64,000 bases of DNA from a virus (IMGVR_UViG_3300043436_004623:17298-81297), one strand, 5' to 3'. Positions 459 to 64,000 are shown, counted from the stretch's first letter. The notes: generated by a model not told the origin, from the sequence alone. Made by a program: numbers and translations.

Positions 459-459
459 T

Positions 460-996: not shown

Positions 997-1002
997 AAAA
1001 AT

Positions 1003-3892: not shown

Positions 3893-3901
3893 ACAAAATA
3901 G

Positions 3902-3930
3902 AATATAATATAAATAAAATCAAATGTCAA
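3902..3930 (-). promoter_or_regulatory. sigma70-type promoter ahead of the rfbH-rmlB-E1 block
   Basis: TTGACA (3930-3925), 17-nt spacer, TATATT, in the short gap before ATG 3892. Confidence 0.6.
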
Positions 3931-4767
3931 TTATTTTTTTAATTTATAATAATGTGAATGCTTATTCGAAAGATATATTTTATTTCTATACACAATATCA
4001 GCATATTTTAAATGGTATTCTTTACTGGGATCTTTTGGGCTTCTTGTTCCGCCCCAATCAAGCAAGCTTTTAAATTTAATTCCAAAAATAGCATTTTTAT
4101 AACCTTTTTGATTTAATCTGATTGATAAATCTAAATCATCATGTCCAAATGGAGCAAGATTTTCATCAAATAATCCAATTTCATCTAAAATTGATTTTTT
4201 AATACATGTTGGACTTTTAATTACAATTTCACAAAATGAAAATTGTTTATTCTTGAATTCTTGAAAATGATTTAAATTCAATTGGTTCCAATGACCACAT
4301 TCAGACTCTAAAAACGAATGTTCAAAAAGAATACCATTACTATCTAAATTAGTAGATAATCCACATCTAAAAGAAATATATCCAAGATTTTTTATATTTT
4401 TGTATAAATCATCTATATCTTCGTTTATATTTATGCCTTCTAAAACAACATCATCCTGTAAAAAGAAAACTAAATCTTCTTTTGACGTTTCAATTGTTTC
4501 CAAGTATTTTATTGCGGAATTCAAAGAAAGAAGTTCATGCACATCATTTTCATAAATTTTATGAAGTTTATATTTATTTGAAAAAGATAAAAAACAATCA
4601 TCTATATTTTTTTCAGAATTGTCGATGCATCCATCTAATACACATATAATATTTATATTAAATAAAGAATTTTCTGTAGCTTTTCGTATACCTTTTAAAA
4701 CATCAGATATCAAATCTTCTTTGTTATGAATTGTAATTATATAATGAGCTGTTTTTTTATTTTTCAT
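3931..4767 (-). CDS. Glycosyltransferase, GT2-like
   Basis: IITIHN...CVLDGCID, FFLQDD, FDENLAPFGHDDLDLSIR. Confidence 0.8.
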   Translation of the reverse strand: MKNKKTAHYIITIHNKEDLISDVLKGIRKATENSLFNINIICVLDGCIDNSEKNIDDCFLSFSNKYKLHKIYENDVHELLSLNSAIKYLETIETSKEDLVFFLQDDVVLEGININEDIDDLYKNIKNLGYISFRCGLSTNLDSNGILFEHSFLESECGHWNQLNLNHFQEFKNKQFSFCEIVIKSPTCIKKSILDEIGLFDENLAPFGHDDLDLSIRLNQKGYKNAIFGIKFKSLLDWGGTRSPKDPSKEYHLKYADIVYRNKIYLSNKHSHYYKLKK

Positions 4768-5728
4768 TTGTTTTGAGATCTTGTATCCAATTTTTTAAAT
4801 TTTTTAATTCTTCTATTTTTGTAATTTTTAATTTAAACAGTAAATCATATATAAACAATAAACAGTCTTCAATTGATTTGTTTTTTAAATTAATGTTATT
4901 AAATTCTTCCATAATTATTGGTAAATTTTTATACATTGAAATTTCTCCAATAAAATCTTTAAAATAATCATGAGCATTTCTTATTTGATAAGTATTAGGA
5001 GAATGAAAACCAAGTTTATAATCAAATTCCCACATTATTCTTTGAGCTACATAAGATCTTAAAATATCTGTAAATCTAAAATCAACTGTAATAGGAATAT
5101 AAAGTAAAGAATTTAATTCTTTATTCCATAATGTGCTTTGAGAATTAAATGGACTATAACAAAATTCATTAATTGATATATTAATATCATTATTAAATTT
5201 AATATGTTTATTATTTGTTAATCTATAAATTGCATCAAAATCTGAATCATCATCTATAATTCCTTGCCACACACCAATTTTCGAAATATTACTTTCTTTA
5301 GTGTATTGATTTTTTTTATTGATTAAAGATAATGGAGTTCCTCTAGGCCAACATTTTTCATTTGTAAAAAACTCAAATGGATTAATAAATGCAGATCCTT
5401 TGATATTGTTTTTGCAAATAAAATCATTCACTTCCCAGGATTCATAAGGAAATGTATCATCATCTGTATCATAAATTAAATTTGCATTATTTTTAATAGC
5501 ATATAAATATCCAAGATTTTTTCTTGAATAATGATTCATTGGAGTTGTATCAAAACTTAATAGATTTAAATTTTTTTGATCATTTATATCTAAAAATGTT
5601 ACATTATCATAGTCATAATGATTGCTTTTGCTATCTCCAACTATTACAACATGCCAATTTTTTATTTTAGAAAACTTTTTTACAGCTTCTGTGATTGGAT
5701 TTATGGAAGTAATTATTATATAATTCAT
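4757..5728 (-). CDS. STELLO/DUF288-like glycosyltransferase
   Basis: IIITSIN, VIVGDSKS, YSRKNLGYLYAI, IYDTDDD, WPRGTPL, FRFTDILRSY. Confidence 0.75.
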   Translation of the reverse strand: MNYIIITSINPITEAVKKFSKIKNWHVVIVGDSKSNHYDYDNVTFLDINDQKNLNLLSFDTTPMNHYSRKNLGYLYAIKNNANLIYDTDDDTFPYESWEVNDFICKNNIKGSAFINPFEFFTNEKCWPRGTPLSLINKKNQYTKESNISKIGVWQGIIDDDSDFDAIYRLTNNKHIKFNNDINISINEFCYSPFNSQSTLWNKELNSLLYIPITVDFRFTDILRSYVAQRIMWEFDYKLGFHSPNTYQIRNAHDYFKDFIGEISMYKNLPIIMEEFNNINLKNKSIEDCLLFIYDLLFKLKITKIEELKNLKNWIQDLKTNEK

Positions 5729-5736
5729 AATTTATT

Positions 5737-6489
5737 TTATTTTATTTTTTGCCAAACTCTATTATGACCACAAGCAAATAAATGTTTGTAATTTTCATCT
5801 TTACTTATAGAGTGTTCTATTGCTAATCCAACATCATGATGACCATTGAATCTATTTGGCATTTTGTACATATTTAAAAATGATGAAGCATCATCCATCA
5901 CTAAAAATCCATTAGTTTTTAGCAGTTTATCGCATAAATTAATATCACTTATCACTGTTTCATAATCATGTCCACCATCAATATAAATTATATCATATTG
6001 ACCATTTTTAATTGCTTGTATTTGTGCGTCAATATTAGTAGATAATCCTTTTATAATATTTACTTTTGAAAAATCTAATTTAAATTCTGAAAATAAAAAT
6101 TCTATACATTTTTTATAATCTTCTGGTGGGTATTCAGAATATTTATCGCTTGCATTATATAATGGTGTTAATCCGTATGTTTGAATATCTTTATTTAAAT
6201 AGTCTGAACATATTTGTGAGAGAGCCAAGATAGATCCTTTGTATACACCTATTTCTAAAAATTTACCATTTTGAGGTATTTGAGAAAATAATAATAGCCA
6301 TAAATATCTAAAAGCTTTTTCTCCATATCCATAGTTTAATATTGAAATAGTTTTATTATGATGATTTAAAACGTCATAATCATTGACTTTTGATTCAAAA
6401 TATTCATAAATTTCATTATTAAATACTTCTGTATTTTTCCAATTTTTAGAGAATTTTTTAAAATCTTCTTGTAATTCTTGTTTATTCAT
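5737..6489 (-). CDS. Class I SAM-dependent methyltransferase (Methyltransf_24-like)
   Basis: FLEIGVYKG and YIDGGHDYE...LVMDD motifs. Confidence 0.8.
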   Translation of the reverse strand: MNKQELQEDFKKFSKNWKNTEVFNNEIYEYFESKVNDYDVLNHHNKTISILNYGYGEKAFRYLWLLLFSQIPQNGKFLEIGVYKGSILALSQICSDYLNKDIQTYGLTPLYNASDKYSEYPPEDYKKCIEFLFSEFKLDFSKVNIIKGLSTNIDAQIQAIKNGQYDIIYIDGGHDYETVISDINLCDKLLKTNGFLVMDDASSFLNMYKMPNRFNGHHDVGLAIEHSISKDENYKHLFACGHNRVWQKIK

Positions 6490-6491
6490 AA

Positions 6492-7349
6492 TTATTTTTG
6501 TTTTATAAAAGATACATAATGATTATAATCTATATTTGATATATTCCATCTTGATCTATATATATCAGTTTCAAAATTTAAATTTTTGGATGAATGGATT
6601 ATTTTAAATGGTATTTTTTTCCCATCAACAAATAAATTACATTTATTTGCTTCATCATCATGATACTGTATATCTAAATTCAATTGTCTTACTAATATGC
6701 TATATAAAGTTTGATCATGCCTTCCCGTTCCCCAACCATTAGGACAAGTTCCATTATCTATAAAATTATTAATATCTTTGCATAATTCATACATTGGGTC
6801 AATTAGGGAATTTTTAATTTTTCTAGAAACCCCTTGAAATCCAGCATCAATTCCAAAAATATCATCATTTAAAATCCAAGAATTTTCTTTTGAATTTAAA
6901 TTGAATTTTTTTATGATATTATCTGTTGTCATCCATTTTATAGAATGTCCACAATCAAATAATAAATATCCATTTTGTTCTATATGTTTAAAAAGATTTT
7001 TTAAGCATTTTAGTATTGTTGTTCCAGAATCTAGATATAAAATATTTTCGTGAATATCAATAGATTGTTTAATTATAACAGGTTTCCATGAAAATAATCC
7101 TTTAACTTTTCTATTAATATCTGTTTGTAAATCTTCAATAATATATGGATTTATTTTTTCTACTTGATATACATTGGTATATTTAATTGAATTAATTTTA
7201 TTAATACTATCTTGTGAAAGACCTAAATCATAAACCATTATTTCGCCTATATCATTTTCATTATGTTTGAAAATGCTTCCTATTAAATTAAACAATAAAG
7301 GCAAGTGTTTATCATCACTAGCTATGCAGAAATTAATTTTATTTTTCAT
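6492..7349 (-). CDS. Putative glycosyltransferase (DUF1647-like)
   Basis: MVYDLGL, FSWKPVII, ILYLDSG, RHDQT motifs. Confidence 0.65.
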   Translation of the reverse strand: MKNKINFCIASDDKHLPLLFNLIGSIFKHNENDIGEIMVYDLGLSQDSINKINSIKYTNVYQVEKINPYIIEDLQTDINRKVKGLFSWKPVIIKQSIDIHENILYLDSGTTILKCLKNLFKHIEQNGYLLFDCGHSIKWMTTDNIIKKFNLNSKENSWILNDDIFGIDAGFQGVSRKIKNSLIDPMYELCKDINNFIDNGTCPNGWGTGRHDQTLYSILVRQLNLDIQYHDDEANKCNLFVDGKKIPFKIIHSSKNLNFETDIYRSRWNISNIDYNHYVSFIKQK

Positions 7350-8178
7350 ATATATTCATTCCCCAATCTCCTAAATTTGGAATATTATATTTTTGCGTTT
7401 GTTCTTTAATAAATTGCAATTTATAATTGTCTTTATCTAATAATTTAGAATAAATATTTGGATCTATCTTTAGATTGTATGAAAATTTAGAAAGTTTCCA
7501 ATCAAAGTCATTAACCGAACTGTCGTATGCTGAACGTGGAACAGTATTTATATTATGATTTAAATTATTAATATAATCTGTTATTTTCCAAAAATATTGT
7601 TTTATTGCGGCAGTTTTTTTATCTAGCCACTGTAAATGAGCAATAAATAATGAGTTCTTATCAAATATTAGATTATTATTTGTGCTTGGTAAATGAGTTG
7701 AATGCATTTGAGCATAATTAAATAATGCTCTATGTTCATAAGAGCCAATCCTATCCATTAAATTATTTTCCCAAGGGCCATCTATTCTTATAGTGTCAAT
7801 ATCTGTGTATTGAATCCAATTCAAATGAAATGTACAATCTCTATTATTTTCTAATATATATTCTAATTCTTTTTTATCAATGTTCCCATCTAAATATTCA
7901 TCAGAATCTAAACATATAATATTTTTAGAATATTTAAATGCCTCATCATATAGAGCTTGTCTTATATCGGTTTCTATAAATAATTCATGATCTTCTCTAT
8001 GAGAAGATAAGATGCTTAATATATTATATTTTTCTTTATTTTCTTGTAAAAACTCATATGTTTCATCATTAGAATTATCTACAAAAAATACAAAGGAGTC
8101 TGCATATTTTTGCCATATAGGAAGCATTTCTCTTAATAAGAAAAGCTCATTTCTAGTCATTGTTATTTGAGTGATCAT
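7339..8178 (-). CDS. Glycosyltransferase, GT2-like
   Basis: MTRNELFLL, FVDNSNDET, ICLDSDEYL (DxD). Confidence 0.7.
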   Translation of the reverse strand: MITQITMTRNELFLLREMLPIWQKYADSFVFFVDNSNDETYEFLQENKEKYNILSILSSHREDHELFIETDIRQALYDEAFKYSKNIICLDSDEYLDGNIDKKELEYILENNRDCTFHLNWIQYTDIDTIRIDGPWENNLMDRIGSYEHRALFNYAQMHSTHLPSTNNNLIFDKNSLFIAHLQWLDKKTAAIKQYFWKITDYINNLNHNINTVPRSAYDSSVNDFDWKLSKFSYNLKIDPNIYSKLLDKDNYKLQFIKEQTQKYNIPNLGDWGMNIYEK

Positions 8179-17141: not shown

Positions 17142-17963
17142 ATGAATTTAAAAATAAATGTAGAAAAATCAAATATTATATTAAATAATTTAAATTTATC
17201 TAATAAAAAAATATCTCAATTAATAAATGTATCAGAAACTACTGTAGAAAAATTTCTTAAAAAGAGTGGTATTAAAAAAGGAAGGAGAAAACTCTCTTTA
17301 AATGAGTCTTTTTTTGAAAACATAAATACTAATGATAAATGTTATATACTTGGATTAATATATGCAGATGGGTGGAATAACGTCTCTGGTAATAGATGGG
17401 GAATTCAATTAACTAAAGATGATGAATATATATTATATGAGATATCTAAAATTTTAGACTACGGTGGTTCTATTAAAACCCTTAAACCATCTTGTGAAAA
17501 CGGAAAGTTAAGATCAAGGTTAGAATTATGTAGCAAAAAAATGTGTAACGATTTATTAAATTTAGGAGTTGTTCAAAATAAAAGTTTAGTGTTAGATTTT
17601 TATGAAGAAAAGCTCCCGTTAAACTTTATAAATGATTTTTTTAGAGGCGTTTTTGATGGAGATGGTTCTTTATATATATCACCTAAATTTACTCATTTTT
17701 CAGTAAAAATTACATCTTCTACTATATTTTGCAAATCTTGTCAAAGATTTTTAGAAAAACATATTAATTACAAACCTTCTTTAAAAATTTATAAACAAAA
17801 CCCTAAATCATGTGATTTAATTATTTCTGGTAGAAATAACGTATTAAATTTTTTAAATTGGATTTATAATAGTGAAAGCGATTTAAAACTTTCTAGAAAA
17901 TATAATAAATTTTTATCTATACCTAATGGACCTAAAAAAAATCCACACAACTCATCAAAGTAG
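17142..17963 (+). mobile_element. Free-standing LAGLIDADG homing endonuclease
   Basis: ILGLIYADGW and FFRGVFDGDGSL motifs, N-terminal HTH-like segment. Confidence 0.9.
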
Positions 17964-44649: not shown

Positions 44650-45771
44650 TTAGGCGAGGCCAGAAACAATCTTACCAACGAGGGCGCGATTGTCAAGAAC
44701 CATACGTCCTTCTTCAAGTGAACCAAAGTAACCGATCTTGTTCTGACGGATGCTGTACTGATCATCAGCTGTGAGGCTGAATTCAGAACCATTCTCAGAA
44801 TCAACGGCAACTGCACGGATAAGTGACTCGCGTCCACGATCAAGACCAATGATGATTTCTTCATTAGCGCCATTGAATGCGCCAGGATTACCACCAGCGG
44901 CGGTTGTATAGCTTTGTGAAGAAACGTTATCAAAGATTGTGTTGAAACGCTGACCACGGCCAAGCTCATTGATTTCCATGATAGCAACTCCATAAAACTC
45001 AGGGATACCTGCGTTGTTATAAACAGCTGTTCTCATTTCGTCGGTAGCTGGGATATCAGTCTTTGTTCCAACGGTGTTGATTGGGTTATAAGCCATTGCA
45101 CGAAGCTCTTGAACAACTTCTGGAGAAACAATGAGGTCAGTGATACCACGTCCACCACGTGCTTCTGGAGTTCCTTTGAGCCATGAGGTGTTGATTCTCT
45201 TGGAAAGGGTGAAGAGTTCGTTAAGGTCAGCAAGAAGGAAACGGCCATTTGTATTGGCGCGTTGTACGTGTTGCTTACCATTTGTTTGAGCAGCGGCAAG
45301 TGCGCTGAGGATAAGGTTAGCAGAAGTCTTCTCTTGCTTAAGAAGGATTTCTTGAGCCATACGAGTAAAGGTCTTGCTAACTACATCCATGCGGCTCTTA
45401 GCAGCATAACGCTTATCAAAGCTAAGTGCTGAGTCAAGGCTATATGTAGCAATCTTCATTTCAGAAACAGTTGGAAGAACTTGGTTCTGTGGAAGACCAC
45501 CAGCTACGCTTTGGCTGTAAACGGTGATATAATCTTCAGCTGTGATGTCATAATAGAGATCAAGCGGAATACTTGGATTGTCATCAGCATTAAACTGAAG
45601 ACTCGTGAATAAGTTACTAAGGGTTGGAGCGTTGTTGATGACTTCAGCCAATACTGGTCCGATGAATTCAGCAAGCGCAACCTGAGCTTCAACTGCAACC
45701 GCACGGTTCTTTGAAGCCATAGCCTTAATTAACTCAACTTGTTCTGGAGTTCTTTTTAAAGTAATTTTCAT
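44650..45771 (-). CDS. Major capsid protein (HK97 fold inferred)
   Basis: 373 aa after protease/scaffold and decoration genes; ITDLIVSPE motif; codon usage of a highly expressed gene; strong terminator. Confidence 0.8.
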   Translation of the reverse strand: MKITLKRTPEQVELIKAMASKNRAVAVEAQVALAEFIGPVLAEVINNAPTLSNLFTSLQFNADDNPSIPLDLYYDITAEDYITVYSQSVAGGLPQNQVLPTVSEMKIATYSLDSALSFDKRYAAKSRMDVVSKTFTRMAQEILLKQEKTSANLILSALAAAQTNGKQHVQRANTNGRFLLADLNELFTLSKRINTSWLKGTPEARGGRGITDLIVSPEVVQELRAMAYNPINTVGTKTDIPATDEMRTAVYNNAGIPEFYGVAIMEINELGRGQRFNTIFDNVSSQSYTTAAGGNPGAFNGANEEIIIGLDRGRESLIRAVAVDSENGSEFSLTADDQYSIRQNKIGYFGSLEEGRMVLDNRALVGKIVSGLA

Positions 45772-50487: not shown

Positions 50488-53400
50488 TCAATTAATAAAC
50501 ATTGGTGTGAATGTGGCTTGGACATTTTGCTCTTGAAGATTAATCATGTCAAAATATGTTTGCATCATCCAATTTCCTAAAACTAATGTGGAATACGAGT
50601 CTTTTCGAGCTTTATCTGCCCCTCTTTGTTTTTTCAAATTTAATGGGAGATCGAAACTCTGAGTTCCTTGAGCTGACGTGTTCACTTGAATAAGTGCGCA
50701 TTGTACTTTAATAAGTTCAACATTGTCTTTTAATTGTTCAATAAAATCAATTTGTCTAGCGCCAGATTCTTTTTCATCATCATGTCTAGAAAATTTTAAT
50801 GTTTGAATTGGGATATTAGCTAACCTTTGTTTATTATAAGCTTCATCCATTGCTGCGCCAGCGAACCATATTCTTTTATGGTCGAATGCGGCCTGTAATG
50901 ACTCGTTAGCATATCTAATCCAAGCTGAACTTGGTTTCCTCAAGTGAACTATTTTTCTTGTGGATATATTGTATTGATTTCTTGCGTCTCTAAGAGCTTT
51001 ATCGTATTCTTGTGGATTATCAAAATCCGCATCAAACATATCTAATTTAATACCAGCCTTTTTAAATATTTCACTTTCATTGCATGAATTAATGAATTGA
51101 ACACCTCCGTTATAGTCTCCAACAATTGAAACAATATTAAAATGAGCAATTAAGTAATGAATATATTCTATATGCTTTTTTAAATTTGTTCCAGAAAGTG
51201 CATAGCTGTGGACAACTACACCATTTCTTTTTTCTGGATTAATTTTAATTAGTTGCATAGAGAAGTCGTCGGAACCATCACTCTCTGACCAAGAAGGGTC
51301 AAATGCTAATATATATTGCGCTGTAGGATCTCCTATAACCTCAACAGCTTGCCCTTCTCCATCTGGTATAGTACAAAGCGCCATCTTACTTACCTTGAAG
51401 TATCCAGAGCTATCGTCAGTAAATACAGCACCAAACTCACGATCAAATTGAGATTGACTCATTGTAGCTTTTGCTTGATTAATTAAGTTCTGGTCATAAA
51501 GCTGATCTGGAGCGCAGTCATAACTAAAATGCATAATTACTCTATGAGCATTATCTTTTTCGGCGTTGTTTAAAATCAATGACTCATATTGTTGATATAA
51601 TTTATAAAGATATTCAAATTTATAACTTGCTGAAGACAGGCCAATAATTTTATTATTTGGCCAACGATAACGATCTTCTTCAGACATTTTACCTTGTTTA
51701 ATTAATGTACTTTCCAAATCATATAATTTTTGTCTTTCAGTTGGATTTTCTACAACAGAAAGGAATGGCAGAATAACTTCATTTAAAATTTTCTCTGGCA
51801 TCAAAAGAAGCTCATCGATAATCATCCTTTGGAAACGGAAACCGCGAAGTTTTTCACCATCACCAAGTGGTAATGCTGTAATCTTACTTCTTCCGATCTC
51901 AATAACCCACTCATCGTTTGTCTTAGATATTCTATTAATACATTGTGATAAAAATCCAGCCTTTGGACTGCGAGATATTTCCTCAATCTTACGGAAAATC
52001 ATTTTAGACTGCCTGAATGATTTACTAATAATTCCAATATGAACTCCTTGATTTAAAATTGCGTCTAAAATAGCAAAAATTGCAGTAGAGAAAGATTTAC
52101 TCATACCGCGAGAATTATGATGAACAAAACCACTACCAACATAACACTCCTCATTTTCTACAGTAATATCTATAGATTTAACAAGACAATTATCTATTGA
52201 TTTAATTGGCGAAAATACAACGTTTTCATTTTTAATACTATCAATAATTTGACGAGTATTATCAGAAATATTTATAAGTGAATCAAAATTATTTTGAGAA
52301 AAACCCTTACCCCAAGATCCTCTTTTACCAGTTACTTTTTCTTTTGAGCCGTCTTTTTTAATAATTTCGCAAAAATTTGGTATTAAGTTGTTTTGATAAT
52401 TTTTATTTTTTGATCTATTAATAATTTTTTCCAAATTGCTTTTCTTGTGAAAAACTTGAAAGTCTATTGAATTTTGAAACTCTCTCAAAGAATTAACATC
52501 ATTTGATATAACTAAATCATAATATGAGACTCCTTTATGCTCACCCGATTTTCTTAAATTAGATATTATTCCAAGATTATTTAAAATCATTTTAATCTGT
52601 CTAAGAAGTTGTAATGAAGTATTTTTTAAACCAACTTTACTGCTAGTAGATAAATATGAAGCATAGCCATCAGCATCAAACAATCCCCCAATTAGTGCGC
52701 ATAATTCATTTCTAGAACATTGTAAAATGGAATCACAGATAACTTTATCTTTTGATTTTAAAGATCTATCCCAACCTATACTTTCTAACCAAGAAACAAT
52801 CTCTCTATTAAATATTGAATATTCATAAAAACTTAAATTTTTTGTTCTTTGTCTTGCGTAACTTTTTAAATCATTATCTCTTAAAAACTTTAAGCAAGTC
52901 TCTTGTACTTCAAAATGTTCAGAACAATAATGAATTCCATCTTGATTAACCCATCCATCTCCTAAAACATAGCCAAGTAAATAAAATAAATATGGAGAGC
53001 GGTTTACTTTAGATCCTTCAGTTATATCTTTATCGCCCCATATTTCAGTAGCTATTTTAATTGGAATAGAATCTCCAATTTTTAAATTTTCAATTTCTTT
53101 AAAAACAAACTTGCCATCATCATAAACTAAAACTTTATGACCGATTTTTGCTTTAAAACTATCGCCAGATTGTAGTTTTATATCTAAACCTTGTTCTTCT
53201 GGATTTTCTTTTTTATCTGAAACAAGATTAATTTCATTTCTTGATCTGACATAATCTCCAATTTGGATCTCTTTAATTTTTTTAAATCCATTTTTTGATA
53301 AGACATATTCATTTTCTTCTAAACACCATATCCCCAAAAAGTAATCAGTTTCCATCATTGCTTTAATTGCCATGTGCTGGAATGGAAATAGCGAAACGCC

Positions 53401-53559
53401 AGTAATTAATTCAGAAGAGAAAGATGGGTTTTCTTTTAAAAATTTATATAATAAAATTTTAGCTTTTCTTTCATCAATAAAACCGTTTGTATCAAGAATT
53501 TCTTGATTAATATTTTTAAATTTTTTATTTAATTTTTGATTGCCAGTTTCCCAACTCAT
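50488..53559 (-). CDS. terL: Terminase large subunit with intein
   Basis: LFPFQ, Walker A SRGMSKS, LRGFRF, Walker B IIDE, nuclease LAFDPS...DDFS...RKDSYS. Confidence 0.93.
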   Translation of the reverse strand: MSWETGNQKLNKKFKNINQEILDTNGFIDERKAKILLYKFLKENPSFSSELITGVSLFPFQHMAIKAMMETDYFLGIWCLEENEYVLSKNGFKKIKEIQIGDYVRSRNEINLVSDKKENPEEQGLDIKLQSGDSFKAKIGHKVLVYDDGKFVFKEIENLKIGDSIPIKIATEIWGDKDITEGSKVNRSPYLFYLLGYVLGDGWVNQDGIHYCSEHFEVQETCLKFLRDNDLKSYARQRTKNLSFYEYSIFNREIVSWLESIGWDRSLKSKDKVICDSILQCSRNELCALIGGLFDADGYASYLSTSSKVGLKNTSLQLLRQIKMILNNLGIISNLRKSGEHKGVSYYDLVISNDVNSLREFQNSIDFQVFHKKSNLEKIINRSKNKNYQNNLIPNFCEIIKKDGSKEKVTGKRGSWGKGFSQNNFDSLINISDNTRQIIDSIKNENVVFSPIKSIDNCLVKSIDITVENEECYVGSGFVHHNSRGMSKSFSTAIFAILDAILNQGVHIGIISKSFRQSKMIFRKIEEISRSPKAGFLSQCINRISKTNDEWVIEIGRSKITALPLGDGEKLRGFRFQRMIIDELLLMPEKILNEVILPFLSVVENPTERQKLYDLESTLIKQGKMSEEDRYRWPNNKIIGLSSASYKFEYLYKLYQQYESLILNNAEKDNAHRVIMHFSYDCAPDQLYDQNLINQAKATMSQSQFDREFGAVFTDDSSGYFKVSKMALCTIPDGEGQAVEVIGDPTAQYILAFDPSWSESDGSDDFSMQLIKINPEKRNGVVVHSYALSGTNLKKHIEYIHYLIAHFNIVSIVGDYNGGVQFINSCNESEIFKKAGIKLDMFDADFDNPQEYDKALRDARNQYNISTRKIVHLRKPSSAWIRYANESLQAAFDHKRIWFAGAAMDEAYNKQRLANIPIQTLKFSRHDDEKESGARQIDFIEQLKDNVELIKVQCALIQVNTSAQGTQSFDLPLNLKKQRGADKARKDSYSTLVLGNWMMQTYFDMINLQEQNVQATFTPMFIN
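52114..53325 (-). mobile_element. 404-aa intein with LAGLIDADG endonuclease in terL
   Basis: Begins CLEENEYVLS after W78 and ends FVHHN followed by Ser; internal LLGYVLGDG and LIGGLFDADG. Confidence 0.95.
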
Positions 53560-58534: not shown

Positions 58535-58820
58535 ACAAAAGTACTTACACTTTTTCAGTCTGGGATTTTTTTTTATGTTTGGTATTGGTGAATTTAGATA
58601 GACCGATAACGTTTTCGACAAATGGGGGAGGGGTACGTTGGTTTGGAGAGGGGAGATTGAGGAAAGTGTCCCCCCGCCCTTTCCCACGCAAACGACTCGC
58701 AGTTTTTTTGAGAAATGGGGGGAGGGTGTCAAGTGTTTTCTTTAGAATCTCGCAAAATTCTTTTCGAAAAAAAACGATTTTTTTTCTTGTGATATGGGGG
58801 GTATCTGGTAATGTTCTTAC

Positions 58821-58991
58821 ATGTCAAACGAACTCCAACTCCTCCGCATCGGTGATGTAATCGAATCCAAGCAAGGCAAATTCAAGGTTGCCGACATTGT
58901 AGAAGAACAATGGTATGAGCCTTGGGTTGTGCTGGTAAAGTGGAACGGAAACGCTTGGGAAGATACGAGAATCCAATTCAAAGACCTCTGA
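58821..58991 (+). CDS. 56-aa early protein (MSNELQLLRIGDVIESK...)
   Basis: Manual translation; own promoter; below ORF-track cutoff. Confidence 0.75.
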   Translation: MSNELQLLRIGDVIESKQGKFKVADIVEEQWYEPWVVLVKWNGNAWEDTRIQFKDL

Positions 58992-59044
58992 AAATAAAAA
59001 ATCTTTTTCCTTGCTCTAACCTCAAAATCTGCTAACTTTCTCTC

Positions 59045-59203
59045 ATGTCAAACGAACTCGCCAACCTCTACAGCGCCGAAACTCTTGCCGCTCTTGCCGA
59101 ACTCGAAGCAGTCGCGCAACGCTTTGAGCAACTGGCAATCCGCACGGGTGAAAACGCCCAAGCATTCATCGAAGAATGCCGCGAAATAAAATGGGAAAAG
59201 TGA
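59045..59203 (+). CDS. 52-aa helical early protein (MSNELANLYSAETL...)
   Basis: Manual translation; own promoter; shares MSNEL start with the previous gene. Confidence 0.75.
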   Translation: MSNELANLYSAETLAALAELEAVAQRFEQLAIRTGENAQAFIEECREIKWEK

Positions 59204-59246
59204 AAATTTTCCTTGCGTTCCCTCTCTCATCTGCTAACTTTCTCCC

Positions 59247-59441
59247 ATGTCCAACACGACCACCACCACCCGCCCACGCATTAACTCCACCGTAGACTTT
59301 CGCTATGAAGGTCGCCGCTTCTGCGGTAGCGTCACCGATAGGAACACGCTCGACGGCGGCTTTGTCATCATCTATCGTGACCTTGCAGGAGATCGCGCAT
59401 TCATTGGCTCAAATCAAATTGAAATCATCAAAGTCTGGTAA
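59247..59441 (+). CDS. 64-aa early protein, paralog of 63233..63439
   Basis: Own promoter; MSNTTTTTRPRIN...GSVTDR.TLDG.F.IIYRD shared with the paralog. Confidence 0.85.
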   Translation: MSNTTTTTRPRINSTVDFRYEGRRFCGSVTDRNTLDGGFVIIYRDLAGDRAFIGSNQIEIIKVW

Positions 59442-59461
59442 ACATAACACATAGAAAAAAA

Positions 59462-59641
59462 ATGAAACACACACTAGCAATCCTTGGCTCTGCCATTGTC
59501 ACCATGTCGCCTGTCTTTAGCCTTTGCGCCTTCTGTATCTACGGAGGACGAAGCGAAGTGTTCGACGCTGTATGCTTCTTAACCTTTGGCGCGACCTGCT
59601 ACTGCCTCGCACATCTTCAATCATACATCAAACATAACTAA
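59462..59641 (+). CDS. 59-aa Cys-rich hydrophobic (membrane) protein
   Basis: Manual translation MKHTLAILGSAIVTMSPVFSLCAF...; A/C-rich leader. Confidence 0.6.
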   Translation: MKHTLAILGSAIVTMSPVFSLCAFCIYGGRSEVFDAVCFLTFGATCYCLAHLQSYIKHN

Positions 59642-59644
59642 CAC

Positions 59645-59869
59645 ATGAGCGCACGAAACAAAGCACGAAAGATGATCAACGCACAAGTCTACGCCATCAC
59701 AGGCTTGTCACTCGATGATCTACCCGACACCGCTCTTCTATGTGACCACATGGATACATTGGAAGAGATGATAGAAGAAGCGGACAGCATGACTCCCATG
59801 AGTGAGCTTCTCGACTACGCACAAGAAGCCGCAATGGAATTTCTAGAAGAAGAAGGAATGTCGGCATGA
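59645..59869 (+). CDS. 74-aa acidic early protein
   Basis: ORF track; ITGLSLDDLPD...acidic helical C-terminus. Confidence 0.75.
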   Translation: MSARNKARKMINAQVYAITGLSLDDLPDTALLCDHMDTLEEMIEEADSMTPMSELLDYAQEAAMEFLEEEGMSA

Positions 59870-59976
59870 GTGAAGAACTGCATGACATAGTTGCAAGCGC
59901 CGTGTGCTTTACTACTACGCTTGTAGTAGTATGGCACATTGTGCATAGCATAACTACATTGCCACTGCCTCTGTAA
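59866..59976 (+). CDS. 36-aa hydrophobic peptide
   Basis: ATGA overlap with the previous stop; its stop codon lies in the first bases of repeat element 1. Confidence 0.4.
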   Translation: MSEELHDIVASAVCFTTTLVVVWHIVHSITTLPLPL

Positions 59977-60049
59977 CTCGTTGAGAATGAGTGAGTTACG
60001 GGCGGGGGCGGGGCCGCGCCCCGTAACTCGTTGAAAATCAATGAGTTAT
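59973..60049. repeat. Palindromic repeat element 1 (27-bp palindrome, 23-bp GC core, 27-bp palindrome); core inverted relative to elements 2-4
   Basis: GTAACTC-N13-GAGTTAC, GGGCGGGGGCGGGGCCGCGCCCC, GTAACTC-N13-GAGTTAT. Confidence 0.95.
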
Positions 60050-60165
60050 GTTTTTCGCTTCTTTATCATAAATAATCAATCTGTCAAGAAAAAAGTGCGA
60101 AAAATAAAAAATAAAAAATGAAAAAAGATGTTGCATTTTATCGGTTCCGAGGTTATTCTTTGCGC

Positions 60166-60228
60166 ACGAGCTTCGGGTACTCGCTAAATCACTCTAGAGA
60201 GTTGAGCATCTCTTAAAACTGCTCACCA
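60166..60228 (+). ncRNA. Candidate small structured RNA with H-type pseudoknot
   Basis: Promoter TTGCAT-17-TATTCT (60131-60159) with no ATG downstream; hairpin CGAG/CTCG; pseudoknot AGAGA/TCTCT plus TGAGCA/TGCTCA with loop TAAAAC. Confidence 0.6.
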
Positions 60229-60294
60229 CTTTCCAAGCTGAAAAAAAACGAAAATTTTTCTTGCTACACTCCGAAAATCTGCTAACTTTCTCTC

Positions 60295-60522
60295 ATGACC
60301 AACACCACTACCACCGCCGCCTTGTTCCGCGCCACTAAAAACTTTACTGTTGCTTACTGGCACAGCAAGCACACCACCAAAATCACCAAGGGCGAAACGA
60401 TCATGCCAAACGAAAATTTCCGCATCTTGAATGGCTTCTTCTTCTGGGTTGAGCGCGTGAGCAATGAGCAAACCACGCAAATGACAAAACCCTTGCCAGT
60501 CGAATTGATCGAAGAAATCTGA
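60295..60522 (+). CDS. 75-aa early protein
   Basis: ORF track; own leaderless promoter. Confidence 0.8.
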   Translation: MTNTTTTAALFRATKNFTVAYWHSKHTTKITKGETIMPNENFRILNGFFFWVERVSNEQTTQMTKPLPVELIEEI

Positions 60523-60565
60523 AAATTTTTCTTGCCATTCTCTCAAAATAAACTAACTTTCTCTC

Positions 60566-60700
60566 ATGTCCATTGACCAACTCACCCACACCGATTCAGT
60601 CGAACTGCTCGCCGCATTTCACGAAGCCGCAACGCAAGCCATGTATGAGTGGCAAGCCGAACAAGCCGCCGAATACTTTTCTTCACTTCTTGAAAAATAA
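60566..60700 (+). CDS. 44-aa helical acidic early protein (MSIDQLTHTDSVELL...)
   Basis: Manual translation; own promoter. Confidence 0.7.
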   Translation: MSIDQLTHTDSVELLAAFHEAATQAMYEWQAEQAAEYFSSLLEK

Positions 60701-60741
60701 AAGTTGACGCAACACAAAAAAAATCTTACTCTTTCCCCGAC

Positions 60742-60891
60742 ATGAACACCACCGAATATAAAGAAATGTTTGCCAAGGTTCAAGCTGGCCAAATCACTCA
60801 ACAAGTCTGGTTTGACTACTGCTTCCAACAATTGAGCCAAATCATGGAAGACAACAAGGATGTTTTCATCCGCTTAAAAAATCGCGGATAA
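60742..60891 (+). CDS. 49-aa early protein (MNTTEYKEMFAKVQAGQIT...)
   Basis: Manual translation; own promoter. Confidence 0.7.
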   Translation: MNTTEYKEMFAKVQAGQITQQVWFDYCFQQLSQIMEDNKDVFIRLKNRG

Positions 60892-60965
60892 TAAAAAAAT
60901 AAATTGACACAATCCGAAAAATCTGCCATACTTCTCCCGCAACAATAAACAAAACAAAGCACACC

Positions 60966-61220
60966 ATGAACATAAACTACCAAGCATCCGCACTTGAAAT
61001 CGCAAACGCACTCGTCGGCAAAACCGTTCGCTACTTTGCGAATGATTCCAAAATCAAAAATGATGGCGTTCGCGTCTTCAAAGTTGAAGCAGTCGATCAT
61101 GTTTCGATTGGCAAAAAATCGGGTCGTCGTTATGTCACTATCCTTGCCAAGGATGTTGACGATGGCGGCGAAAGCAAGCATCGCAACCTTCACCTCGCGG
61201 GAATCGATCTCGTGGTGTGA
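60966..61220 (+). CDS. 84-aa beta-rich early protein
   Basis: ORF track; promoter TTGACA-17-CATACT at 60904-60932 and A/C-rich leader. Confidence 0.8.
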   Translation: MNINYQASALEIANALVGKTVRYFANDSKIKNDGVRVFKVEAVDHVSIGKKSGRRYVTILAKDVDDGGESKHRNLHLAGIDLVV

Positions 61221-61258
61221 GTGGTGAAGGGTGCTGGGCATCACACTAAAAGGCCCAC
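61213..61258 (+). ncRNA. Second H-type pseudoknot related to the 60196-60226 one, overlapping a stop codon
   Basis: GTGTGA/TCACAC plus TGGGC/GCCCA with loop TAAAA. Confidence 0.5.
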
Positions 61259-61283
61259 TTTGTCAACCCTAAAAAATAAAAAA

Positions 61284-61448
61284 ATGAAATCCGCCGTTCT
61301 TTGTCTTTTCTTTTCTTCTTTACACATTGCAATTTTTTCGATTGTGCAAGCGTATGACATCATACCACACGATCTAAACTTTATTGTTTTTTGGCTTTGC
61401 CTCGCGTTGACTTGGGCAGGGTGCTTCAAAAGCGCATTGCAAGAATAA
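61284..61448 (+). CDS. 54-aa two-helix membrane protein
   Basis: In frame with ORF 61221..61448; start at ATG after an A-tract; two hydrophobic stretches. Confidence 0.6.
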   Translation: MKSAVLCLFFSSLHIAIFSIVQAYDIIPHDLNFIVFWLCLALTWAGCFKSALQE

Positions 61449-61459
61449 TTTTTCGGGCA

Positions 61460-61505
61460 TGGGTGAAAAGTCGCGCCTCTGTGGTAGGGGGCGCGACTAC
61501 ACCCA
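61460..61505. terminator. Strong GC hairpin ending an early transcription unit (no U-tract)
   Basis: TGGGTG-AAA-AGTCGCGCCTCT/AGGGGGCGCGACT-A-CACCCA. Confidence 0.5.
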
Positions 61506-61511
61506 AAAGTC

Positions 61512-61572
61512 ATAACCGCTTGAAAATGAGCGAGTTACGGGGCGCGGCCCCGCCGCCGCCCGTAACTGTCAA
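61512..61572. repeat. Palindromic repeat element 2 (right palindrome truncated to GTAACTGTCAA)
   Basis: ATAACCGCTTGAAAATGAGCGAGTTAC, GGGGCGCGGCCCCGCCGCCGCCC, GTAACT. Confidence 0.95.
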
Positions 61573-61661
61573 GAAAAAAATGCAATTTTCTGAAAGTTTT
61601 TTTTTCTGCAAAAAGTGAAAATTTTTCTTGCGATATCGCGGGGATGTGATAACTTTCTTGC

Positions 61662-61799
61662 ATGACTGACAGCAACACCACCCCCGACACAGAAAACCAC
61701 AACGGAACTTTCGGCTTGAATGATCGCCCATCTTTCAGCGACAGCGAAGACTTTGGCTTGTTCGGTTGGTTGGGCGAAGAAGAGCAGGAAGAAAAATAA
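61662..61799 (+). CDS. 45-aa acidic early peptide (MTDSNTTPDTENH...)
   Basis: Manual translation; own promoter. Confidence 0.65.
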   Translation: MTDSNTTPDTENHNGTFGLNDRPSFSDSEDFGLFGWLGEEEQEEK

Positions 61800-61846
61800 G
61801 TAAACTTTTTTCTTGCTTAAATCATCCAATCAACTATCTTTCTCTC

Positions 61847-62002
61847 ATGTCTACCACATCACTCATCATCGCCATCGACAACCTCCGCAAGCAACTTGAA
61901 CTTTGCGAAGACTTCTCCGATTGGGAAGGTTGCGAAAGAATCGAAGAAGAAATTTCTTCTCTTGAAGCAATACTGGAAGAAAAGAATTTGACAGAAGCAT
62001 GA
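61847..62002 (+). CDS. 51-aa acidic helical-hairpin early protein (MSTTSLIIAIDNLRKQL...)
   Basis: In frame with ORF 61766..62002; start fixed by promoter geometry. Confidence 0.75.
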   Translation: MSTTSLIIAIDNLRKQLELCEDFSDWEGCERIEEEISSLEAILEEKNLTEA

Positions 62003-62121
62003 AAACCATCACCATCACCATCCAACCCGCAAAGCCTCGCATCCGCTTTGCCCCTGCAACGATTCGCTTTGTAGACAAAAAGAAAAAACAAAAAAAAGAA
62101 TCTTGCAGAAATAAAAATTGA
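61999..62121 (+). CDS. 40-aa highly basic peptide (MKTITITIQPAKPRIRFAPATIRFVDKKKKQKKESCRNKN)
   Basis: Manual translation; ATGA overlap with the previous stop. Confidence 0.55.
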   Translation: MKTITITIQPAKPRIRFAPATIRFVDKKKKQKKESCRNKN

Positions 62122-62155
62122 CAACCCGCCCCAAAAACTTTATCTTTCTCCCGCC

Positions 62156-62329
62156 ATGAAAAACGCAATACTCGAAAGCCTCTTCCTTCTTTCCTGCTCC
62201 ATCCTTTGCGGCTCTGGACTTTTCCTCATTGAATGCCCTGCTTGGTTGCAAAATAGTTTCCTTGCAATGATGGTTGCCCCAAGTCTCTGGTTTATTCCTA
62301 AAAGAATTTTCATCGAAATGAAAAAATAA
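62156..62329 (+). CDS. 57-aa membrane protein (MKNAILESLFLLSCSILCG...)
   Basis: Manual translation; own promoter TTGACA-17-TATCTT. Confidence 0.65.
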   Translation: MKNAILESLFLLSCSILCGSGLFLIECPAWLQNSFLAMMVAPSLWFIPKRIFIEMKK

Positions 62330-62368
62330 GTTGATAATCTCGAAAAAAAATCTTACTCTTTCCCCGCC

Positions 62369-62578
62369 ATGAAATACACCATAACACGCAACGCATTCGC
62401 CACCACCTACCGCACACCCTTGTTTGATCTTAAGATCCACAAGTTCATGAAGCATCCTCGCCCACTTTTGGTTTTCAGCGATGGACGCGAGGCCGCTAGC
62501 GTTTTTGTTGACAGAAAACAAAGCGCCGATCTTCTGCGAAATAAGTTTAAAAACCACATTGACAGACGCAACGCATAA
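62369..62578 (+). CDS. 69-aa basic early protein
   Basis: ORF track; own promoter TTGATA-17-TACTCT. Confidence 0.8.
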   Translation: MKYTITRNAFATTYRTPLFDLKIHKFMKHPRPLLVFSDGREAASVFVDRKQSADLLRNKFKNHIDRRNA

Positions 62579-62594
62579 CTAAAAACTCTTTCTG

Positions 62595-62696
62595 TCACCC
62601 GATAGATCGGTACGCCAGCACTAACGCTTGACGAGGTACAAGTACTTGAGCGAATAGGCTGGGTGGACGAGGTTCGACTCCTCGCGGGTGAGACCA
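62595..62696 (+). ncRNA. tRNA-like / tmRNA-TLD-like RNA lacking an anticodon loop
   Basis: Acceptor TCACCCG/CGGGTGA, T arm CGAGG-TTCGACT-CCTCG, encoded 3' CCA, stemless 13-nt D region, long irregular helix in place of the anticodon arm. Confidence 0.75.
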
Positions 62697-62717
62697 CTCA
62701 AACACAAAACAAAAAAA

Positions 62718-63071
62718 ATGAAATCATATATCATCATCCTTGCTGAAATTCTTTTAGTTATCATCTTTGCATCTGCTATGCCGATTGCTCTTTATGCTGG
62801 AGGACAAAACGAACTTGCTCTTTACTCTACTTATATCTTCGGAGCAATCATTCTTTGGTTTTCTATTGTTATGATACATTTAGAATACATTTCCCGAAAA
62901 GTTGGAAAAGAAGATAAACTGGAAAGGGCGAGACATCTTGGATACATACATGGACTAAAAGAAGGTGTTGACAATAACCCTTTTAAGGATGACACGGAAA
63001 GGCATGTGTATCGTTTGGGATACGATGCTGGCGTTTCCGAGTACTGCAGAGTGGCGCATCCAGAAGATTAA
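62718..63071 (+). CDS. 117-aa membrane protein with two N-terminal helices and a soluble C-terminal domain
   Basis: In frame with ORF 62688..63071; ATG after an A/C-rich leader; C-terminal ARHLGYIHG...NNPF...YRLGYDAG. Confidence 0.75.
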   Translation: MKSYIIILAEILLVIIFASAMPIALYAGGQNELALYSTYIFGAIILWFSIVMIHLEYISRKVGKEDKLERARHLGYIHGLKEGVDNNPFKDDTERHVYRLGYDAGVSEYCRVAHPED

Positions 63072-63083
63072 GCTTGACAAGTC

Positions 63084-63144
63084 GTAACTCGTTGAAACCC
63101 AGCGAGTTACGGGGCGCGGCCCCGCCGCCAGCCGTAACTGTCAA
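63084..63144. repeat. Palindromic repeat element 3 (right palindrome truncated)
   Basis: GTAACTCGTTGAAACCCAGCGAGTTAC, GGGGCGCGGCCCCGCCGCCAGCC, GTAACTGTCAA. Confidence 0.95.
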
Positions 63145-63232
63145 GAAAAAAATGCGGTTTTGTGAAACTTTTTTTCTCATAAAAAATGATTTTTTTTGTT
63201 GCGTTTCGAGCGAATTGTGATAACTTTCTTAC

Positions 63233-63439
63233 ATGTCCAACACGACCACCACCACCCGCCCTCGCATCAACACTCTTGTTCAATTCACCTATTGCGGAAT
63301 GAATCTGACTGGAAGCGTCACCGACCGCGACACTCTCGACGGCGCGTTCATTATCATTTACCGCGACCCATACTGCGGCGACCGCTGCACGGTTGCATCG
63401 AGCCGAGTTGAAAATCTGAAAATTTTTCACGGAAAATAA
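63233..63439 (+). CDS. 68-aa early protein, paralog of 59247..59441
   Basis: ORF track; own promoter; clear sequence similarity to the paralog. Confidence 0.85.
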   Translation: MSNTTTTTRPRINTLVQFTYCGMNLTGSVTDRDTLDGAFIIIYRDPYCGDRCTVASSRVENLKIFHGK

Positions 63440-63483
63440 AAAGTTTTTCTTGCGTTTCTCTTAAAATCCATTAATCTACTCCC

Positions 63484-63687
63484 ATGTCCAACACCTACCA
63501 CGCCACCGAAGTTTCCCCCGAAGAATACACCGCCACTCTTGCGGAAGCCGCCGAGCTTGCGCTCGCGGACTACCACGCGCACCTCGACCAGCTTGAGGCC
63601 CAGCGCCAGCCCGACGATTCGGATTGGAACTACCACCCCGAAGACGACTACAACGAATACACGATGGGCTACGATGGCGGCTTCTGA
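63484..63687 (+). CDS. 67-aa very acidic early protein
   Basis: ORF track; own promoter; D/E-rich with spaced Tyr/Trp. Confidence 0.8.
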   Translation: MSNTYHATEVSPEEYTATLAEAAELALADYHAHLDQLEAQRQPDDSDWNYHPEDDYNEYTMGYDGGF

Positions 63688-63704
63688 GTCGCCCCATCGC
63701 CTTT

Positions 63705-63781
63705 CTAACTCATTGAAAACAAGCGAGTTACGGGGCGCGGCCCCGCCCCCGCCCGTAACTCATTCAAAACCAATGACTTAC
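63705..63781. repeat. Palindromic repeat element 4 (complete)
   Basis: CTAACTCATTGAAAACAAGCGAGTTAC, GGGGCGCGGCCCCGCCCCCGCCC, GTAACTCATTCAAAACCAATGACTTAC. Confidence 0.95.
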
Positions 63782-63801
63782 AGCGGCCCATGTAGTCTAT
63801 T

Positions 63802-63902
63802 AGCTATTAACTGATTTGCTATTTGCTATTTTGCTATTTGCTACTGTTGATTTGTCAATAACAAAATTGCAGTTTGATTTGTCAAGAAGAAAATTGCAGT
63901 TT
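63802..63902. repeat. GCTATT micro-repeats followed by a tandem 27-bp-period direct repeat
   Basis: About five GCTA(T/C)T units; TGATTTGTCAA-N5-AAATTGCAGTTT at 63848-63875 and 63875-63902. Confidence 0.8.
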
Positions 63903-63952
63903 ATTCTGAAAATAAAATTTGACACCTCGCGTCTTTGTGTTAAGTTTCCCCC

Positions 63953-64000
63953 ATGCAAATCATTAACCACATCCTGTCACTATTCACACGCGACCGCAAA
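63953..64000 (+). CDS. Early protein, truncated by window end (MQIINHILSLFTRDRK...)
   Basis: TTGACA-16-TAAGTT-6 nt-ATG. Confidence 0.65.
   Translation, partial: MQIINHILSLFTRDRK

Follow-up and report, generated by a model that had tools for sequence, protein, structure and literature searches.

The DNA analysed here, hereafter called the window, is a stretch of 64,000 nucleotides from an uncultured siphovirus-like phage of freshwater lakes with a genome of roughly 130 kb. The phage encodes a terminase, a ribonucleotide reductase, PhoH, a sugar-modification cluster and tail proteins, including an ORF of 2728 aa, and its terminase-based relatives include a complete 133.8-kb genome with terminal repeats. 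In a GC-richer region (43–45%) of small plus-strand ORFs, we located a tRNA-like module of 102 nt at positions 62595-62696 on the plus strand (Table 1). A preliminary description of the window had reported an acceptor stem, a T arm, a G-A-CCA tail, a 13-nt D region and a long helix at this site, and each of these features was found in place.

Table 1. Features of the tRNA-like element and its surroundings, with positions counted from the first nucleotide of the window
Feature	Position	Strand	Remarks
Upstream ORF P0001, 69 aa, basic, no family	62369-62578	+	Precedes the element in every copy
-35-like hexamer TTGACA	62560-62565	+	Within the 3' end of the upstream ORF; invariant in 7/7 element-bearing loci; also in G001
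Presence/absence segment, 131 bp, AAC at both edges	62570-62700	+	62569 and 62701 directly adjoin in contigs of two lake runs
Conserved leader AAAACTCTTTnTG	62583-62594	+	Kept across haplotypes
Acceptor stem, 5' strand (U1-G7), TCACCCG	62595-62601	+	Perfect 7-bp pairing with 62685-62691; invariant in 7 loci
Stemless D region AUAGAUCGGUACG, 13 nt	62602-62614	+	Unpaired in all folds; invariant
Long irregular arm in the place of the anticodon arm, 48 nt	62615-62662	+	Consensus fold: three helices, two small internal loops, 12-nt apical loop
Apical loop of the long arm, GAGGUACAAGUA, 12 nt	62633-62644	+	Invariant across copies
Junction GUGGA (window) / GGGGA (most copies)	62663-62667	+	Precedes the T stem; 62664 is T or G among haplotypes
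T arm CGAGG / UUCGACU / CCUCG	62668-62684	+	Invariant; stem is that of tRNA-Asn(GUU) in L337
Acceptor 3' strand CGGGUGA, then G73, extra A, encoded CCA	62685-62696	+	Invariant
Conserved trailer CTCAAACA	62697-62704	+	Followed by the A-rich leader of the next ORF
Downstream ORF P0002, 117 aa	62718-63071	+	Hydrophobic N-terminal half and small GY-repeat domain weakly like RMF/DUF2799

Upstream of the element, the TTGACA hexamer is followed after 17 nt by AAAACT, a -10-like hexamer within the leader AAAACTCTTTnTG, and the start predicted from this pair (~62594-62596) coincides with the 5' end of the element. The spacer (62566-62582) was highly variable, unlike TTGACA and the leader on either side of it. 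AAAACT is a weak -10 hexamer, and a consensus promoter scan did not list the pair. From this pattern of conservation, we infer that TTGACA / 17 nt / AAAACT is a putative sigma-70-like promoter of the element's own. In a library labelled 'METAGENOMIC RNA-Seq', the RNA nature of which is unconfirmed, a single contig of 146 nt with a depth of 3.2 covered 62582-62720; because its ends fit the branch points that an indel produces in a de Bruijn graph equally well, this contig is uninformative on expression.

Relatives of the upstream protein P0001 in IMG/VR were limited to G001, the nearest virus record. The small C-terminal domain of P0002 contains two xGYxxG repeats and matched Pfam RMF with E-values of 0.002–0.01, below the cut-off; among its relatives, 4 of 32 matched RMF and 16 of 32 matched DUF2799, with no PDB match. 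A homolog of P0002 was named 'ribosome modulation factor' by JGI, and most of the relatives of ~55–65 aa match DUF2799. The G001 form of P0002 has 58 aa and is without the hydrophobic N-terminal half.

The part of the window from 58750 to 63510 (plus strand) contains at least eight promoter-like units, composed of an A/T tract, TTCTTGC, ~16–17 nt, TAACTT, 6 nt and ATG, which are placed for leaderless or near-leaderless mRNAs of the small ORFs. Composite GC-rich hairpin modules (GTAACTCGTTGAAA... around a GGGGCGCGGCCCC core) lie between the small-ORF cassettes at 59962-60050, 61507-61614, 63079-63186 and 63694-63787; they also occur in G001 and in L282-type loci, and are likely to be terminators or recombination hot spots that shuffle the cassettes. 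Elsewhere in the window, the large terminase ORF (50488-53559, minus strand) encodes 1023 aa. Many of its relatives align at both ends with only 619 aa and others have ~1460 aa, and these length differences suggest the gain and loss of one or two insertions, either intein-like or of a domain. Near the ribonucleotide reductase genes lies a free-standing homing endonuclease ORF of LAGLIDADG type (17142-17963, plus strand), on the strand opposite to its neighbours. The 373-aa product of the ORF at 44650-45771 matched no family, and BLAST against INPHARED phages found no match to it.

Fold of the element and its response to RNA detectors

The minimum free energy (MFE) fold of the element (-36.7 kcal/mol, z = -2.3) recovered the acceptor, the long arm and the T arm. 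The element has the 7-bp acceptor, the 5-bp T stem and the T-loop of UUCRANY type that belong to a canonical tRNA. A strict module scan, in which a 7-bp Watson–Crick acceptor was combined with a 5-bp T stem and a TTCRANN loop, matched the window once and gave no match in 300 block shuffles that preserved composition. The D region AUAGAUCGGUACG contains GG, is without the 5' D-stem strand and resembles the remnant of a D loop. A D stem of 3–4 bp was not found in the element, for which ARAGORN with introns allowed formed just one G-C pair and one A.G.

In the consensus fold of the haplotypes described below, the helices of the long arm lie at 21-24/65-68, 27-29/61-63 and 31-38/51-58 in element numbering, in which the variable sites 38, 51, 64 and 70 correspond to 62632, 62645, 62658 and 62664, respectively. 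The inner hairpin closed by CAAG in the preliminary description was unsupported by the homologs, and the consensus fold has the 12-nt apical loop GAGGUACAAGUA in its place. The tail G-A-C-C-A (62692-62696) is one nucleotide longer than that of a tRNA. The same description was correct in stating that the element has neither an mRNA-like domain nor G3-U70; the pair at 3-70 is A3-U70.

Default ARAGORN reported no tRNA or tmRNA in the whole 64,000-nt window, and its tmRNA and mitochondrial modes returned nothing on the element, with no tmRNA call even at -ps80. At gathering thresholds, no Rfam family matched the element, and at E≤10 a search of 501 nt gave nothing tRNA-like or tmRNA-like. When 121 nt were searched at E≤10, the Rfam tRNA model RF00005, for which membership takes a score of at least 29 bits, did not match the element. 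The matches obtained were insignificant, namely tmRNA_permuted at 9.1 bits (E = 3.3, gathering score 47) and mascRNA (RF01684) at 12.4 bits (E = 4), with the bare T arm also matched; RF01850 reached just 5 bits. As encoded, the element is not a decoding tRNA according to default ARAGORN and the Rfam tRNA model, and it had been called anticodon-less with good reason. When introns were allowed, ARAGORN called a tRNA-Val(AAC) of 69 nt with a 29-nt intron (62627-62655) at position 37/38. Standard annotation with ARAGORN and Rfam overlooks such genes altogether.

Further copies, conservation and optional presence

Six further copies of the element were found in lake metagenomes, so that seven loci with three haplotypes are known; parts of the locus occur in at least 20 lake runs. 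Two of the copies (L282 and L292) were recovered by a degenerate pattern scan of metagenome contigs, and the other four (L377-L380) were reached via homologs of the downstream protein. Haplotype H1, in the window, carries C38, C51, G64 and U70; H2, in L282 and L292, carries U38, A51, A64 and G70; and H3, in L377-L380, carries C38, C51, A64 and G70. The variable columns (4 of 102) all lie in the arm or the junction and none in the acceptor stem, D region, T arm or tail; the 54 positions of the top half showed zero changes among the seven loci.

On the consensus fold, the substitutions broke no pairs. Position 64 is an internal-loop site. The sole two-sided change is the joint one at positions 38 and 51, where C.C becomes U-A and a mismatch turns into a pair. 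Three of the four substitutions seem to disrupt pairs when only the MFE fold of a single sequence is considered, but this is an artefact of that fold. Homologs with covariation had been proposed as a check on the element: the homologs were obtained, and the covariation consisted of the co-change at 38/51, with no pair-to-pair swap. The preliminary description had also named, as evidence against its own reading, the score of an ordinary tRNA and a lack of covarying homologs; the element had no tRNA score, and constraint is evident among its homologs. The arm contains a possible short tag frame, with 10 codons ending at UAG 62655-62657, but a premature UAA interrupts it in H2, indicating no coding constraint.

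Pairwise divergence among the haplotypes was 2–4 of 102 positions in the element and 11–33% in the upstream ORF P0001 of the element-bearing loci; between the window and L377, there were 71 differences in 216 positions of the upstream ORF and 2 in 102 of the element. The adjacent non-coding DNA was ~25% diverged, compared with 2–4% for the element, and variation was seen at 4 of 16 columns of the leader (62579-62594) and at 5 of 21 columns of the trailer (62697-62717). Given the much greater divergence of the flanks, constraint is taken to act on one unit, the tRNA-like sequence together with TTGACA and the 12 nt upstream. With three haplotypes, long purifying selection is inseparable from a recent spread of this unit between phage backgrounds, and the low divergence of the element could stem from such a spread. 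Whichever history applies, a discrete functional unit rather than a relic is the best reading.

The element is an accessory gene of the phage, conserved but optional. In the element-less allele of the two lake runs, the TGA stop of the upstream ORF and the next ATG overlap as ATGA. In G001, the upstream ORF is 97% identical and the element is absent, and 18 other loci with P0001 homologs have no element. Since phage variants without it exist, its contribution must be dispensable or conditional. These natural isogenic alleles with and without the element would make a test of function simple once the host is known.

An exact 27-nt scan of IMG/VR found no copy of the element. A degenerate D-loop/T-arm pattern gave five matches in IMG/VR, all of them unrelated, and a looser pattern gave 120 matches, which were mostly chance and among which only a family of D-arm-less tRNA(UCU) genes remained after filtering. 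Covariance model R1 detected no further homolog in the window, in the related genomes G001-G004 or in the other loci, and no second copy of the long arm was present in the window or its relatives. BLAST of 61500-64000 against INPHARED phages gave no match. The known range of the element is one small phage lineage.

Likeness to tRNA-Asn

The element has both a U1-A72 first pair and a G73 discriminator, the combination that is the signature of tRNA-Asn/Gln. When species genomes were scanned for the acceptor 3' strand together with G73, most of the genes returned were those of tRNA-Asn(GUU). The tRNA-Asn(GUU) at L337:3489-3563 has an acceptor (UCACCCG/CGGGUGA) and a T stem (CGAGG/CCUCG) identical to those of the element, and scored 33.8 bits with covariance model R1, whereas none of the other tRNAs at the L337 locus exceeded 21.6 bits. 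The D region of the element reads as a D loop of this type, AGnUCGGUA, minus its 5' stem strand. In contrast to the bacterial and phage tRNA-Asn(GUU) genes with which it shares these traits, the element is without the D stem and the GUU anticodon arm, and has an extra A before CCA. On the basis of the acceptor and T stems, U1-A72/G73 and the D-loop likeness, the element is best described as a tRNA-Asn-type gene in which the D stem is gone and the anticodon arm is now a long hairpin.

GUU is absent throughout element positions 21-68, and the triplet at the formal anticodon position is AAC. U1-A72 is a determinant for the amidotransferase, and AsnRS and non-discriminating AspRS require the anticodon GUU (PMC9976931); because the GUU anticodon arm is absent, the element is without the anticodon that either synthetase needs. 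AAC is an Asn codon, and its possible role as a partner of tRNA-Asn was given little weight because the triplet is mostly base-paired in the consensus fold. No parent for the element was found among the tRNAs of G002 and G003. An attP-type tRNA fragment was also considered, and was rejected in view of the matching 5' acceptor strand and no sign of integration. The L337 contig (JAJDET010000376.1, 157 kb, binned as Planctomycetota) carries 30 tRNA genes in 8 kb (328-7945); the contig may be of viral origin, since tRNA genes are typically packed this densely in large phages and prophages.

Competing explanations and the proposed role of the element

The preliminary description had likened the element to a stand-alone tRNA-like domain (TLD) of tmRNA, which would bind SmpB or enter stalled ribosomes and so block or divert host trans-translation. 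As far as architecture is concerned, the likeness stands: a stemless D loop with GG, a long helix, GGA before the T stem and an encoded CCA are all shared, although a T arm, a stemless D loop and a long helix would likewise be seen in a tRNA that had lost its D stem. The best Rfam alignment, though insignificant, was that to tmRNA_permuted; the related phage G003 carries a full tmRNA in its tRNA cluster, and its phage group thus engages with trans-translation; and inhibition of tmRNA by a TLD-like molecule is reported both with and without the capacity for alanine charging (PMC4131195). Membership in the tmRNA family, however, did not hold up. All seven copies have a Watson–Crick A3-U70 (62597/62689) and not G3.U70, G73 and an extra A stand where A73 followed by CCA is expected, and ARAGORN made no tmRNA call even at a lowered threshold. 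None of the models RF00023, RF01849-51, RF02544 and RF04321 gave a significant match, the best being RF04321 with 9.1 bits; the same tools recovered the genuine tmRNA of G003 (124.6 bits). The TLD of that tmRNA differs from the element in the D region and the acceptor, and the acceptor and T stems of the element fit tRNA-Asn. We therefore regard a tmRNA-type domain as improbable, although the element may act in a somewhat TLD-like manner from outside the tmRNA family. The ARAGORN call with introns allowed leads to a different reading, a tRNA gene with a 29-nt hairpin insert in the anticodon loop, which after removal of the insert would decode with AAC or, at other junctions, with another anticodon. 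The insert falls at the canonical position 37/38 (loop CUAACG|A), and the related phages keep a conserved tRNA(UCU) that is itself D-arm-less, so that in this group a tRNA gene may stay functional after losing its D stem. The predicted tRNA nevertheless has several defects in addition to its missing D stem: its anticodon stem contains an A.G mismatch in every copy and a second mismatch, C.A, in six of the seven loci, and G64A (six of seven loci) leaves only three Watson–Crick pairs in it. A34 in a tRNA-Val is not known as a bacterial trait. The bacterial Val determinants A73, G3-C70 and U4-A69 (PMC9976931) are all missing. The consensus fold contains no bulge-helix-bulge (two 3-nt bulges 4 bp apart), no ribozyme or intron family of Rfam matched, the loci have the whole element or none of it, with no insert-free allele, and the apical loop of the supposed intron is invariant. 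From the lack of broken pairs, the co-change at 38/51 and the effect of G64A, the best reading is that the long arm, and not a spliced form, would be the selected shape. The 'enigmatic' introns of Lak megaphage tRNAs resemble the present case in that an intron-aware tRNA call is combined with a short, non-ribozyme insert in the anticodon loop, for which the splicing mechanism is obscure (PMC6784885). In the element, by comparison, the tRNA body appears incomplete, the anticodon disagrees with the identity elements, and the variants weaken the would-be anticodon stem. We consider the intron reading very unlikely, and keep its probability above zero because such unexplained short inserts in phage tRNA genes are on record (PMC6784885).

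A role in cis would make the element a tRNA-shaped punctuation mark or stabiliser that begins the downstream mRNA or ends the upstream one, and that directs cleavage by RNase P, Z or E or protects the transcript. Its position accords with such a role, since it lies between two ORFs, no terminator was found between it and the next ORF, and the next start codon is 21 nt on; the trailer CTCAAACA and the leader are both conserved, and the next gene varies (P0002 or, in L377-type loci, a different ORF of 87 aa) with element and trailer unchanged. In the element-less alleles, however, the same downstream genes are present and are taken to be expressed, with the upstream stop overlapping the next start, and neither a cleavage signal nor a 5' hairpin would call for sequences as invariant as those of the D region and the 12-nt apical loop. 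On balance, a purely cis-acting element seems rather unlikely to us. A decaying, functionless tRNA-Asn pseudogene carried in a variable early-gene region would account for the missing D stem, the missing anticodon and the aberrant tail, for the many sister loci without the element (the majority), and for its occurrence in just one small lineage, neither IMG/VR nor the four related genomes containing a wider family. Decay is hard to reconcile with a divergence of 2–4% next to non-coding DNA at ~25% and a neighbouring ORF at up to 33%, with an unchanged top half, and with changes in the arm that spare the paired positions; we judge this explanation to have little probability. Should the element prove to be no more than a relic or a signal for processing, it would be of minor interest.

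Our preferred explanation, to which we give about an even chance of being correct, is that the element is an accessory gene of the phage, maintained by selection, and encodes a small, tRNA-like RNA which does not decode, arose from an asparagine-type tRNA, has its own promoter and acts in trans as a mimic of the tRNA top half. Because the top half of a tRNA is kept and a long hairpin replaces the codon-reading arm, the RNA is probably a tRNA mimic and not a working tRNA. Transcription would begin from TTGACA / 17 nt / AAAACT at the 5' end of the RNA or within 1–2 nt of it, and the element would form the first 100 nt of a transcript that reads on into the next small ORF. Its 3' end would be released by the tRNA-end enzymes of the host. 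Such enzymes need just an acceptor/T minihelix; the extra A before CCA may hinder them. The resulting stable RNA of ~100 nt would not read codons, and would act in trans by mimicking the top half of a tRNA, competing for or occupying a factor, of host or phage, by which the acceptor end and elbow of tRNAs with U1-A72/G73 are recognised. The proposal of an early phage RNA decoy in the preliminary description is a reasonable conjecture, and sequestration of SmpB or EF-Tu had no specific support. A gene for SmpB was not found in G001-G004, which are partial relatives and bear on phage genes, not on the SmpB of the host; RtcB and an Rnl2-type RNA ligase were likewise not found in these relatives, to which the window genome does not belong.

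A more specific version of the mimic reading, which we put forward as doubtful, is that the element represents a new class of phage small RNA. Such an RNA would be early, transcribed from its own promoter and uncharged, would combine the architecture of a tmRNA TLD with the acceptor identity of tRNA-Asn/Gln (U1-A72, G73), and would tie up a host factor that recognises this acceptor end and the elbow, the candidates being SmpB, the GatCAB amidotransferase and a defence tRNA nuclease that reads the acceptor stem. The 12-nt apical loop would serve as a second, sequence-specific handle. Non-decoding look-alikes of tRNAs are increasingly found in phages, and to our knowledge only the alanine-type mini-tmRNA has a proposed target. 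The element would add a second, asparagine-like acceptor type on the same plan.

The closest analogues are the TLD-only RNA of mycobacteriophage DS6A, which is described as a 'no CDS' form and proposed to block or divert host trans-translation, and the phage mini-tmRNAs (PMC4131195). Like the element, these RNAs have ~60–120 nt, an acceptor, a T arm, a stemless D loop, no anticodon and an encoded CCA, and they are thought to be competitors and not adaptors, which is also our view of the element. They differ from it in having G3.U70 and A73 and in being seen by tmRNA detectors, whereas the element has A3-U70, G73 plus A, an acceptor of tRNA-Asn type and a 48-nt arm. RNA C and RNA D of phage T4 (PMC9697503) are likewise small phage-encoded RNAs other than decoding tRNAs, and are stable with obscure roles. 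The T4 pair lies in a tRNA cluster and is late, whereas the element stands alone among small ORFs resembling early genes; the two are likened by description, and no sequence relation is expected. The mascRNA / MEN-beta tRNA-like elements (RF01684) have a tRNA-like fold within a longer transcript, are freed by tRNA-end enzymes and do not decode, as is proposed for the element; they are eukaryotic, and the insignificant match of the element covers only the T arm and an acceptor strand.

tRNAs without a D arm, from metazoan mitochondria and the tRNA(UCU) of the related phages, share with the element a connector with GG in place of the D stem and a normal acceptor and T arm. Unlike the element, they keep a normal anticodon stem of 5 bp and a loop of 7 nt. 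The tRNA(UCU) genes were found at G001 L005:12526-12603 (plus strand), G003 c14364-14437 (L127), L202 781-854 (minus strand) and L223 604-677 (minus strand). Their layout consists of the acceptor, UAUCGGA, a normal anticodon arm with the loop CUUCUAA, a variable region of 20 nt and the T arm. The core is near-invariant, and the acceptor stems (GGGGAGG, GGGGAUG, GCACCAG and GCACUGG) vary with pairing kept. Members of the family score 40–41 bits in Rfam, default ARAGORN is blind to them, and AUCGGnACGC is common to the family and the window element.

The related genomes contained other unusual RNA genes. The tmRNA of G003 (L127:7863-8241, minus strand; Rfam 124.6 bits) is a full-length, one-piece molecule adjoining the tRNA cluster, for which ARAGORN predicted the tag GNNKIVSFRKPNYSSKTVAFAA, ending in AFAA; tmRNA is absent from the window, G001, G002 and G004. 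An aberrant tRNA-like gene of 101 nt in G003 (c13378-13478; L118:1501-1602, minus strand) has a 7-bp stem with a ~25-nt loop at the anticodon position and scored 40.9 bits with the Rfam tRNA model. In G002, a 91-nt gene (c28996-29086, L121) with a 29-nt expansion of the D arm and an anticodon-type loop of 8 nt adjoins tRNA-Met. G003 further encodes a tRNA-Leu(UAA) (L127:9501-9786, minus strand) with a group I intron of ~204 nt (Rfam Intron_gpI, 56.9 bits), which occupies the classic tRNA-Leu intron position, here in a phage.
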